64,000 nucleotides of DNA, from contig JAZNGB010000042.1 in assembly GCA_045576275.1 (NCBI GenBank), positions 26,882 through 90,881 of the forward strand, written 5' to 3'. Source of the stretch: Acutalibacteraceae bacterium. Lineage in GTDB: Bacteria; Bacillota; Clostridia; Oscillospirales; Acutalibacteraceae. Below the pieces are notes generated by a model. It did no database searches. It was not told the DNA's origin and was given only the letters and a program-made list of their open reading frames with translations. Positions 36,882 through 39,511 of the stretch are shown piece by piece. Numbering within the stretch: position 1 is the stretch's first letter; every line of letters starts with the position of its first letter. A program made the translations under genes and the position numbers.

Positions 36882-37466
36882 AAATATTCCTCCTAAAAGA
36901 TAAACGGTGTAAGCTCAAACAATAAGCCTACACCGTTATAATCATATCGTTATAAAACAAATTCACCTGTCACGAAATGAATATACAAGCATAGACCTGC
37001 ACCCCGTAGGTTGTGCAAGCCACTGCATATACATATCGAGTTTTCTGAAAAGACAGGTGTTCATAACAATTCCTCTGTTTTGATACTGTCAAGGATAGCA
37101 AATTGTATTTCTTTTGTCAAGAACATTCTTCGCAGTTATTGAAAACAAAATACTGTATAATCAACAGGTGAATTCAGAAGATACGATGGGAATTGCTGAC
37201 GCTTGCTGTTTAACGCAGCAATATGAACCCTCTTTGATGTTTTATCTTGTTTTTTTACTAAAAAAATAAACAAATATTTTTTGGTTGTGTCGGCAAATTG
37301 TATTCTTTTTCGGCAGAGTGTTTAATTGAAGCATTTGATATTTGTGCAATATGTATAAAAAGTTAAGTCTGTTTTGGTTGAATTTGGATAGAGCGAAAAA
37401 TAGTTTTCAACATTTGCAATTGTGCAATGTGCACAAATATGAATATTGCTGTTTGTGTAAAATGAC

Positions 37467-37494
37467 TTGACATTTTGAAAAAAATGTGTATAAT
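37467..37494 (+). promoter_or_regulatory. Near-consensus sigma-A promoter
   Basis: TTGACA (37467-37472), 16-bp spacer, TATAAT (37489-37494), 36 nt upstream of the micro-ORF. Confidence 0.7.
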
Positions 37495-37530
37495 GAAACC
37501 ATAACGAAACGAAAGGAGTTGAATAAAACA

Positions 37531-37662
37531 ATGATGACTGAAAAAGAACTGTTTGTTCTTGAAAACAAACTGTTCTCCGAGCTTGAAAGTGCCAAGGGTT
37601 TGAAGAAGCTTGCTATCATTCTGAAACTTGACGGTCTTATGAGCATGAAGAACGAACTGTAA
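37531..37662 (+). CDS. Small hypothetical protein (43 aa, predicted helical)
   Basis: MMTEKELFVLENKLFSELESAKGLKKLAIILKLDGLMSMKNEL. Has RBS aaaggag, its own consensus promoter and a downstream intrinsic terminator. It falls below the ORF-track length cut-off. Confidence 0.55.
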   Translation: MMTEKELFVLENKLFSELESAKGLKKLAIILKLDGLMSMKNEL

Positions 37663-37823
37663 AAAGGGCGGCTGTCCGAGGTGTCAACAGGCACCGGACG
37701 GAACGAACTTTTTGAAAAAATCCCCCTTTGCGGGTTTTATATATAGCCGATGCGGTTCTGCCGCCGGCAAAATCAGATTTTTCCGTCCTTTTTCATAGAA
37801 TTTCCAACTGTTCCTAAACAAGA

Positions 37824-37851
37824 AACCGATACCGAAAGGTATCGGTTTTTT
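37824..37851 (+). terminator. Rho-independent terminator, also the homing site of the IIC intron
   Basis: Stem aaaccgatacc / ggtatcggttt with a GAAA loop and a T-run ending at 37851. Confidence 0.85.
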
Positions 37852-38409
37852 GTGTATGACGGGCATATCAGTGCTCTGTGGTGAAAGTCCACCGAGGCGT
37901 AGTTACCGACGAACTCAAAAGCGACTCCCAAGGTTTGCATCGTGAGGTGTAGGCGAGAAGAAGGGATAGCGAAATCGTAGCCTGACGAACAGAAACTCGG
38001 TACAAAGGCGAAATAGGCGGATAAGTTGGCCCAAAGCAACGAAGTCCAAAAGGTAACCGTAACCCTATTGCGTAAACCGAGCAGGTAGACGAGGAAAGAG
38101 TATTGGTTTATCCCGTGAGGTCTCATAGACAGAGAAATCTGTAGTAACAACGAACTATGAGAAGTCAGCAGAGGTCATAGTACCGAGAAATCGGGAAGGA
38201 CCGAACAGTTCAATATCACATATAAAAAGATGTTCTGCTTGGAATTGATATGTAAAGTAGTTGAAACGTATATGATACCAAATACAGGAAGTCTTAGATT
38301 AGAATAAGCGGAAGCGTTGAAACAAATATGAGATTGCGAACTGAACCGCCGTATGCCGAACGGCACGTACGGTGGTGTGAGAGGAGGGAGAAAATCCCTC
38401 CTACTCGAT
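37852..38409 (+). mobile_element. ORF-less class IIC (bacterial class C) group II intron, about 558 nt
   Basis: The 5' end GUGUAUGACGGGCAU...GGUGAAAGUCCAC aligns with the Oceanobacillus iheyensis IIC intron as I recall it. The recalled match includes GAAGUCAGCAGAGGUCAUAGUACC...GGAAGGACCGAACAG. Domain V is GAACCGCCGUAUGCCGAACGGCACGUACGGUGGUGUG (38343-38379), with a compensatory GC pair relative to the remembered O.i. sequence. Domain VI is a hairpin with a bulged A, and the 3' end is ...CUCGAU. The domain IV region is only about 130 nt and has no ORF. Confidence 0.85.
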
Positions 38410-38500
38410 TTCCCGGAATAAGAAAAATGTTTTTATGTATTTGCCTTTTTGCAACATAATATGTTAAAATGGACTCATATAAGCAGGAAGGGGTGGTAGT

Positions 38501-39511
38501 ATGCAAAAGCTTTGGTTGCTGCGACCTGCACATTTTTGTGTGGACTTTGCCTGTGCATTTCTGTGTATGGGATATGCGGAGAATAACATTCAGTTTTATT
38601 TGTTGCTTTATAATTTTTGTGCGTTCGCATTGCAGATGCCTTTGGGGCTTCTTGTTGATCGTTTCGGTAAGCAGATCAAAGTTGCCGGTGTCGGCACGGC
38701 TTTAACGGGGCTTGCCTTGCTTTTTCCGAGCAATCCGCTTGTCGGTGTCATCATTGCAGGTGTTGGCAATGCCCTTTTTCATGTCGGTGGCGGTGTGTAT
38801 GTGCTGCACGGTTGCAACAACAAATGCACCCCCTTGGGACAGTTTGTGGCACCCGGTGCGATCGGTTTGTTTTTTGGCGGCTTGTGTGCTTCGGAATTGT
38901 ATTATATCCATCCTCTTGTGATGTTCGTTTTGTTCGTCTTTGCCGCTGTTTTTCTGTTTACAAAAACTGAGGATGCAGCAATGGCGACCGATGTTACCTT
39001 GCAGCCTATGCCGAAAAAGGCAGGCTTGGCACTCGTGTTGCTGTTTTTGGTGGTGGTGTTGCGATCGGCGGCAGGCTTTCAGTTCACCTTTTCATGGAAA
39101 ACAGGCTCCACTGCATTGCTGTTTGCCTTTGCTGTAATGGCAGGAAAGGAGTTGGGCGGTGCATTGTCTGATCGTTTCGGAATGACCAAAACAAGCCTTG
39201 TGTCGTTGCTTGTCGGTGCCGTACTGTTTGTTTTTTCGGGCGACAGTGCTGTTTGCGGCATACTTGCTGTGCTGTGCTTCAACTGCACCATGCCCGTGAC
39301 TTTGTTTGCTGCTTATAAAATCGTTAAGGGATTGCCCGGATTTTCTTTCGGTCTGCTTACATTTGCCTTGTTTTTGGGGTTGCTGCCGTCTTATTTCGGT
39401 TTTTCCATGCCTGATTCTGCTGCAGTGTTCGGTGTCGGTGCTTGTGTGCTTTCACTTTTGCTGCTATTGCCGGGCTTGCATTTTGCAAAAGCGGAGCGTG
39501 ACACGGCATGA
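38501..39511 (+). CDS. MFS-like multi-pass membrane protein
   Basis: About 10 hydrophobic segments. Duplicated motif-A-like loops GLLVDRFGKQ and GALSDRFGMTK. Confidence 0.6.
   Translation: MQKLWLLRPAHFCVDFACAFLCMGYAENNIQFYLLLYNFCAFALQMPLGLLVDRFGKQIKVAGVGTALTGLALLFPSNPLVGVIIAGVGNALFHVGGGVYVLHGCNNKCTPLGQFVAPGAIGLFFGGLCASELYYIHPLVMFVLFVFAAVFLFTKTEDAAMATDVTLQPMPKKAGLALVLLFLVVVLRSAAGFQFTFSWKTGSTALLFAFAVMAGKELGGALSDRFGMTKTSLVSLLVGAVLFVFSGDSAVCGILAVLCFNCTMPVTLFAAYKIVKGLPGFSFGLLTFALFLGLLPSYFGFSMPDSAAVFGVGACVLSLLLLLPGLHFAKAERDTA

Follow-up and report, generated by a model that had tools for sequence, protein, structure and literature searches.

The window analysed here, a stretch of 64,000 nt of an Acutalibacteraceae genome (GCA_045576275.1, contig JAZNGB010000042.1), contains a complete ORF-less class IIC group II intron of 556 nt (37854-38409, forward strand), placed between the intrinsic terminator of a small upstream gene and the promoter of a gene for an MFS-like protein. 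The features of the locus are as follows.

37467-37662, forward strand: upstream mini-gene, with a TTGACA-16-TATAAT consensus promoter at 37467 and a small ORF ending at 37662
37823-37851, forward strand: intrinsic terminator of the mini-gene (terminator scan)
37849-37853, forward strand: last five bases of the 5′ exon, TTTGT, candidate IBS1; the junction follows 37853
37854-38409, forward strand: complete intron, starting GUAUG and ending CCUACUCGAU
37859-38116, forward strand: domain I (lineage consensus fold; contains the RF02001 match)
38025-38040, forward strand: EBS1 stem-loop GUUG GCCCAAAG CAAC, loop at 38029-38036
38117-38166, forward strand: domain II (consensus fold), shorter than in other IIC introns
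38163-38172, forward strand: conserved AGUCAGCAGA motif (end of domain II and J2/3 linker), intact in the window
38173-38202, forward strand: domain III (consensus fold, Rfam match)
38206-38343, forward strand: domain IV, 138 nt, closed by CAGUUC/GAACUG, without an RT ORF
38345-38376, forward strand: domain V (RF00029), with CGC catalytic triad, G.U wobble and 2-nt AC bulge
38378-38407, forward strand: domain VI, with a bulged branch-point A at 38403
38410-38440, forward strand: 31-nt tail (TTCCCGGAATAAGAAAAATGTTTTTATGTAT), missing from all eight empty sites described below
38441-38470, forward strand: promoter-like TTGCCT, 18 nt, TG-TAAAAT, which precedes the MFS-like gene (38501-39511) and is kept at the empty sites

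Rfam cmscan of the whole window at gathering thresholds returned three intron matches, co-linear on the forward strand and each covering its full model: group-II-D1D4-3 (RF02001; 37936-38104; 121 bits versus a cut-off of 32), group-II-D1D4-1 (RF01998; 38123-38201; 52 bits versus 35), and Intron_gpII, representing domains V-VI (RF00029; 38344-38409; 48 bits versus 40). Approximately 140 nt separate the second match from the third. An earlier note on this DNA, made from the letters alone, had recognised IIC-like domains I-III and proposed a search with the Rfam covariance models; the two D1D4 matches bear out that assignment, and all three intron models scored above their gathering cut-offs. Given these matches, the fold of the RNA and the hairpin that precedes it, the intron is an observation in the sequence and lies far beyond chance.

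The 5′ end of the intron was placed at 37854 on three grounds. Homology with other copies of the lineage begins at GTATGACGGG; other IIC introns align there with GUGCG, GUGUG or GUAUG and a short helix after it; and eight same-genus genomes, which carry the orthologous locus without the intron (empty sites), match the window as far as 37853, the homology stopping exactly at ...CGGTTTTTTGT / ...TTTTTTGT. Compared with the consensus GUGYG, the 5′ terminus has A at position 3, a variant also found in the RT-encoding intron of G038, a genome of a different family in the same order, and in a copy from Phocaeicola coprocola (L091). At the other end, CCTACTCGAT at 38409 is common to eight other IIC introns, and the terminus ...CGAU fits the group II consensus AY. 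The span of 37852-38409 proposed previously is therefore correct at its 3′ end but not at its 5′ end, and the length of 558 nt given with it falls to 556 nt. The bulged A that the earlier note had assigned to domain VI was found at 38403, 7 nt from the intron 3′ end.

The terminator hairpin (37823-37848) comprises 11 bp, AAACCGATACC GAAA GGTATCGGTTT, and its 3′ arm enters the T-run, which extends to 37851; the hairpin is kept, with compensatory changes, in the eight same-genus genomes. Two exon bases (GT) separate the T-run from the intron, so that the insertion at a terminator described earlier stands as regards the hairpin and T-run upstream, but the two do not directly adjoin. At the empty sites, this junction is followed immediately by the promoter region of the downstream gene, and as eight related species have the position unoccupied, the element was inserted here. 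All other intron copies that we recovered lie directly after a hairpin and T-run, and insertion of IIC introns after intrinsic terminators is described in PMC1702495 and by Robart et al. (2007), cited in PMC12584367. Because the intron lies between an upstream terminator and a downstream promoter, transcription would reach it only by read-through, and its splicing would not be needed by the host.

The 31-nt tail between the intron and the promoter-like element begins with a near-palindrome (TTCCCGGAA) and is unique in the genome; no second copy was found among the other intron copies, and a metagenome scan for it gave no match. The length of the spacer from terminator to promoter differs among species, and one species has TGTATTT(T)GC in common with the tail; on this basis we lean towards the tail being a native, species-specific spacer, the alternative being a stretch of 3′ exon that was carried along with the intron.

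The EBS1 loop is the most variable stretch among the intron copies, and in each copy it complements the end of that copy's own 5′ exon. All pairs form in the G038 intron (EBS1 UAAAA with exon UUUUA, 5/5), and in one copy of the uncultured Oscillospiraceae MAG G479 (L192; CAAA with UUUG, 4/4). A 5′ intron fragment in G015, a genome of the same genus as the window, also has an EBS1 loop that still fits its own exon (CGCAA with UUGCG, 5/5). In the window, EBS1 CCAAA and exon UUUGU form four of five pairs; position -1 is a C.U mismatch, on account of which splicing at the site may be poor. The first base of the 3′ exon is U, as in most copies.

Folded alone, the 556-nt intron adopts the six domains at -172 kcal/mol, compared with -134 ± 5.9 kcal/mol for shuffled sequences (z = -6.49; 0/100 shuffles as good). 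Covariation was assessed in an alignment of nine complete ORF-less IIC introns: that of the window, three copies from one Oscillospiraceae MAG, and introns from Synergistaceae, Bacteroidota, Elusimicrobia, Phocaeicola coprocola and a saline-lake MAG. Their consensus has 109 pairs, 61 of which have changed on both sides; 94.3% of the cells pair, versus 37-42% when partners are slid by one to three columns, and none of 500 shuffles reached any of five covariation measures. When the comparison is restricted to its own lineage (five sequences at 85-93% identity), 93 of 94 domain I-III pairs are preserved in the window copy, as many as in the RT-encoding G038 intron, despite approximately 10% divergence. 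The earlier note had held that failure of the domain I-VI pairings would count against its reading; instead, the six-domain fold was recovered with both thermodynamic and covariation support.

All 13 pairs of domain V form, and its sequence is identical throughout to the common domain V of IIC introns. The corresponding pattern, GAACCGCCGTATRCCGAACGGYACGTACGGTGGTGTG, has at least 120 exact matches distributed over many phyla; at its R/Y pair the listed matches have 66 A-T, 55 G-C and 0 mixed combinations. The compensatory base pair to which the earlier note drew attention is thus real; it is not distinctive, domain V being of the generic IIC type. All six ribozyme domains are present in the window copy, and the catalytic elements are intact.

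Within the coordinates of domain IV (38206-38343), the ORF list contains no forward-strand ORF of at least 100 aa, and the estimate of a short, RT-less domain IV of about 130 nt agrees with the 138 nt delimited here. Domain IV folds as a closed domain (z = -2.6) and holds a conserved 12-13-bp stem, GAUGUUCUGCUUG with AAGCGGAAGCGUU, that exhibits little covariation in a comparison of only seven sequences. An exact 29-mer from domain IV had no match in the GTDB species representatives, and a gapped pattern of two conserved domain IV words retrieved five loci from them: four on four contigs of G479, and one in G188, a rabbit-gut Clostridia MAG. A further Eubacteriales MAG (L111) has a 3′ fragment that includes this domain IV. 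Domain IV identity to the window is 91-93% in G479, 79% in G188 and 75% in L111 (80% over domains IV and V); a metagenome scan for the domain IV pattern gave no match. By sequence comparison, we assign the window intron to a small IIC family that has one 138-nt domain IV and occupies sites behind different terminators in gut Clostridia.

This family bears on the caveat, raised in the earlier note, that the short domain IV could be the product of an assembly collapse, that is, an RT-encoding intron whose domain IV the assembler had collapsed. The genome is a draft of 69 contigs, and full-length introns do break related assemblies; against such an artefact, three assemblies independent of this one have the same 138-nt domain IV with the same junctions, one of them on four separate contigs; the locus lies inside a 328-kb contig; and domain IV folds as a closed domain. 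We consider a collapsed assembly to be extremely improbable.

Of the four G479 copies, L190 is truncated at its 3′ end and the others are complete (572-585 nt); all four lie directly behind different hairpin and T-run sites. Two of them have a quite different domain I-II backbone on the same D3-D6 module, which points to recombination between introns. The G188 copy has decayed: it is truncated at the 5′ end, J2/3 is deleted, and domain V is mutated. As separate observations, the four G479 loci (L188, L190, L191, L192) belong to MAG CAZTNP01 and their introns are mosaic or recombinant; one of the copies (L192:1949-2120) has on one side the terminator that follows a tRNA cluster and on the other a lysine riboswitch (RF00168, 101 bits); and the G015 fragment (L034:1798-2127) comprises domains I-III, is cut within domain III, and adjoins phage-like genes.

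Three further proposals concerning domain IV were not upheld. A 25-codon frame (38232-38309) was considered as a micro-protein gene and rejected, since all four of its differences relative to the G479 copies are non-synonymous and G188 has an early stop. A local alignment of the short domain IV with the domain IV and ORF start of the G038 intron scored 19, and as 16/300 shuffles scored as well, it was not accepted as evidence of a deletion junction. Domain IV was also considered as being more conserved than the core, and the difference (93% versus 88-89% identity) is too small.

A more far-reaching reading takes the family for miniature IIC introns (556-585 nt) that form a lineage comparable to SINEs or MITEs, with a private, conserved 138-nt domain IV; their D3-D6 module would recombine onto different domain I-II backbones, and the lineage would persist and spread in gut Clostridia without a cognate RT. 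We regard this as speculative and improbable. Were it true, the lineage would move with very little protein help, or would be kept as a free-standing ribozyme of the HYER type (see below).

Full-length relatives of the window intron exist in other genomes. In G038, the intron (L033, 1217-3062) is 91% identical to the window in domains I-III, and its ORF specifies a 422-aa protein with RVT_1 and GIIM domains and without an endonuclease domain. A related intron protein is encoded by 7/58 genomes of the window's genus, the genes lying mostly at contig ends; that of G062 is 84-89% identical to the G038 protein, with intron RNA 91% identical to the window, and that of G006 is 77% identical to the G038 protein. 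In the genome from which the window comes (69 contigs, 96% complete), there is one copy of the intron, one domain V and one IIC domain I; no GIIM domain and no group II RT/maturase were found in it, so that the search for RT-encoding full-length copies in the same genome, suggested by the earlier note, came back empty for this 96%-complete assembly. As full-length introns lie at contig ends in related genomes, such an intron could have been lost from the assembly. No intact IIC protein was found in G479, G188 or G015 either. In G479, the only IIC intron-encoded protein (IEP) sequence is a relic, consisting of the last 41 codons followed by a mutated D5/D6 (L196:1501-1685).

When the G038 protein was searched against the window's genome (tblastn), only a distant RT was returned. 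This protein, the sole RT of the genome, is a full-length RT_UG26 of 402 aa (PADLOC, E = 7.5e-167) encoded on contig C32 (L003:1183-2517), directly downstream of an Rfam RT-5 RNA motif (76 bits) that is preceded by two tRNA genes. From its sequence, we class it among the defence-type or "unknown group" RTs, here accompanied by a structured RNA of its own, and not among the intron proteins. A common stand-alone RT as helper was considered and rejected: the UG26 RT of the window's genome (G000) and the RVT_N plus RVT_1 protein of G479 are 27% identical over 89 residues, and both are without GIIM and without a neighbouring intron RNA.

We infer that the window element is a non-autonomous IIC retroelement that was copied into the site by a helper supplied in trans and is now stranded (probability approximately 0.8); both options offered in the earlier note, a protein acting in trans and a stranded copy, fit the evidence. 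The intron RNA would have reverse-spliced into the DNA behind the terminator hairpin, guided by the hairpin, the short EBS1-IBS1 pairing and a single EBS3-IBS3 pair, and would then have been reverse transcribed by an RT/maturase provided in trans from a full-length relative, a step that is modelled on precedent. With no such protein in the assembly, the copy would now be unable to move, and at most it could excise itself, probably by hydrolysis, like other IIC introns in vitro.

The single copy and the missing IEP would also fit an inactive relic, that is, a dead copy that neither splices nor moves and is drifting towards decay, as would the EBS1-IBS1 mismatch adjoining the 5′ splice site and the existence of decayed relatives (G188, the truncated L111 and L190, and the G015 5′ fragment). 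We consider this unlikely, although a serious candidate, as the window copy has 93/94 domain I-III pairs intact and the widespread consensus domain V, and J2/3, the branch A and both termini are likewise intact, with no decay of the kind observed in G188.

A second rival builds on the hydrolytic endonucleolytic ribozymes (HYER), natural ORF-less IIC introns described by Liu et al. (Science 2024, PMID 38301022), as cited in bioRxiv 10.1101/2024.08.31.610620. Under this reading, the ORF-less RNA would be kept as a hydrolytic, guide-directed nucleic-acid cutter that serves the element or its host. It would account for the retention of structure by compensatory changes in assemblies without a cognate IEP (G000, G479, G188) and for the conservation of the short domain IV across genomes, and ORF-less IIC introns are reported to hydrolyse DNA (Liu et al., cited in bioRxiv 10.1101/2024.08.31.610620). 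However, EBS1 fits each copy's own exon and every copy lies at a terminator, which is the footprint of reverse splicing and not of a trans-acting guide; moreover, the window's genome has a single copy, behind a terminator where expression should be low. We therefore judge a HYER-type role to be improbable here, and retain the stranded, trans-mobilised copy as the preferred reading. By description, the window element is like HYER in being a naturally ORF-less IIC intron RNA of approximately 0.6 kb, and it differs in bearing the insertion footprint of an ordinary mobile intron.

IIC introns that encode an RT/maturase include B.h.I1 of Bacillus halodurans, O.i.I1 of Oceanobacillus iheyensis, and GsI-IIC. 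The window intron resembles these in its compact domain I, CGC triad, short EBS1, post-terminator position, and the CCUACUCGAU 3′ end with the branch A; in contrast to them, it has no IEP, its domains II, IV and VI are shortened, and it starts with GUAUG rather than GUGYG.

The ORF-less introns of T. elongatus are served in trans by a related IEP. The same arrangement is described for the Trichodesmium dnaN introns, which are served by the IEP of the RIR intron (PMC12584367), and for a cyanobacterial case (PMC4424553). As in these cases, ORF-less copies here are closely related to an ORF-containing lineage and are multi-copy in at least one genome. However, those introns are of the IIB/CL type, lie in genes, and have the helper in the same genome, whereas the window element is a IIC intron that is intergenic and has no helper in the assembly.

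A 2015 review (PMC4424553) considered ORF-less bacterial introns rare and almost always co-resident with an IEP-encoding relative, and named C.te.I1 of Clostridium tetani (PMC4024640) as the only one known from a bacterial genome that has no IEP gene at all. Like C.te.I1, the window element is ORF-less, comes from a genome (a draft in this case) that has no group II IEP, and shows no recognisable ORF remnant in domain IV; it differs in that C.te.I1 is a class B (IIB) intron inside a gene and undergoes alternative splicing, whereas the window element is class IIC and intergenic.

The element is not unusual, as is seen from a survey of loci with the common IIC domain V: in 10 of the 37 loci that could be assessed, the distance from J2/3 to domain V is less than 600 nt, and cmscan identified complete ORF-less IIC introns from five phyla among these short loci. 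Wherever the 5′ flank of a survey intron was inspected, a terminator precedes the intron. Such ORF-less IIC introns in post-terminator positions are thus common, and already known, having been published as HYER. One Bacillus massiliglaciei scaffold (L149) was left out of the confirmed ORF-less counts; its two IIC copies are separated by approximately 1.9 kb and the junction contains a stretch of N, which is probably a scaffolding artefact.

Against this background, the window intron changes no concept, and the host locus is unaffected, with no gene interrupted; only the small size, the clean empty sites and the helper missing from the draft genome set it apart. It is a well-delimited minimal IIC ribozyme, at 556 nt among the shortest encountered here, and with its exact boundaries, empty sites and sister copies it offers a possible compact scaffold for structural work or HYER-type engineering. 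It also adds to the case that, as opposed to the 2015 view (PMC4424553), ORF-less bacterial group II introns are common in metagenome-derived genomes.

A side observation concerns the DNA upstream of the insertion. The region of the mini-gene (37342-37853) is conserved at 77-81% in the eight same-genus genomes, including an untranslated stretch of 160 nt before the terminator, and this 3′ region of the mini-gene may itself be a structured RNA.
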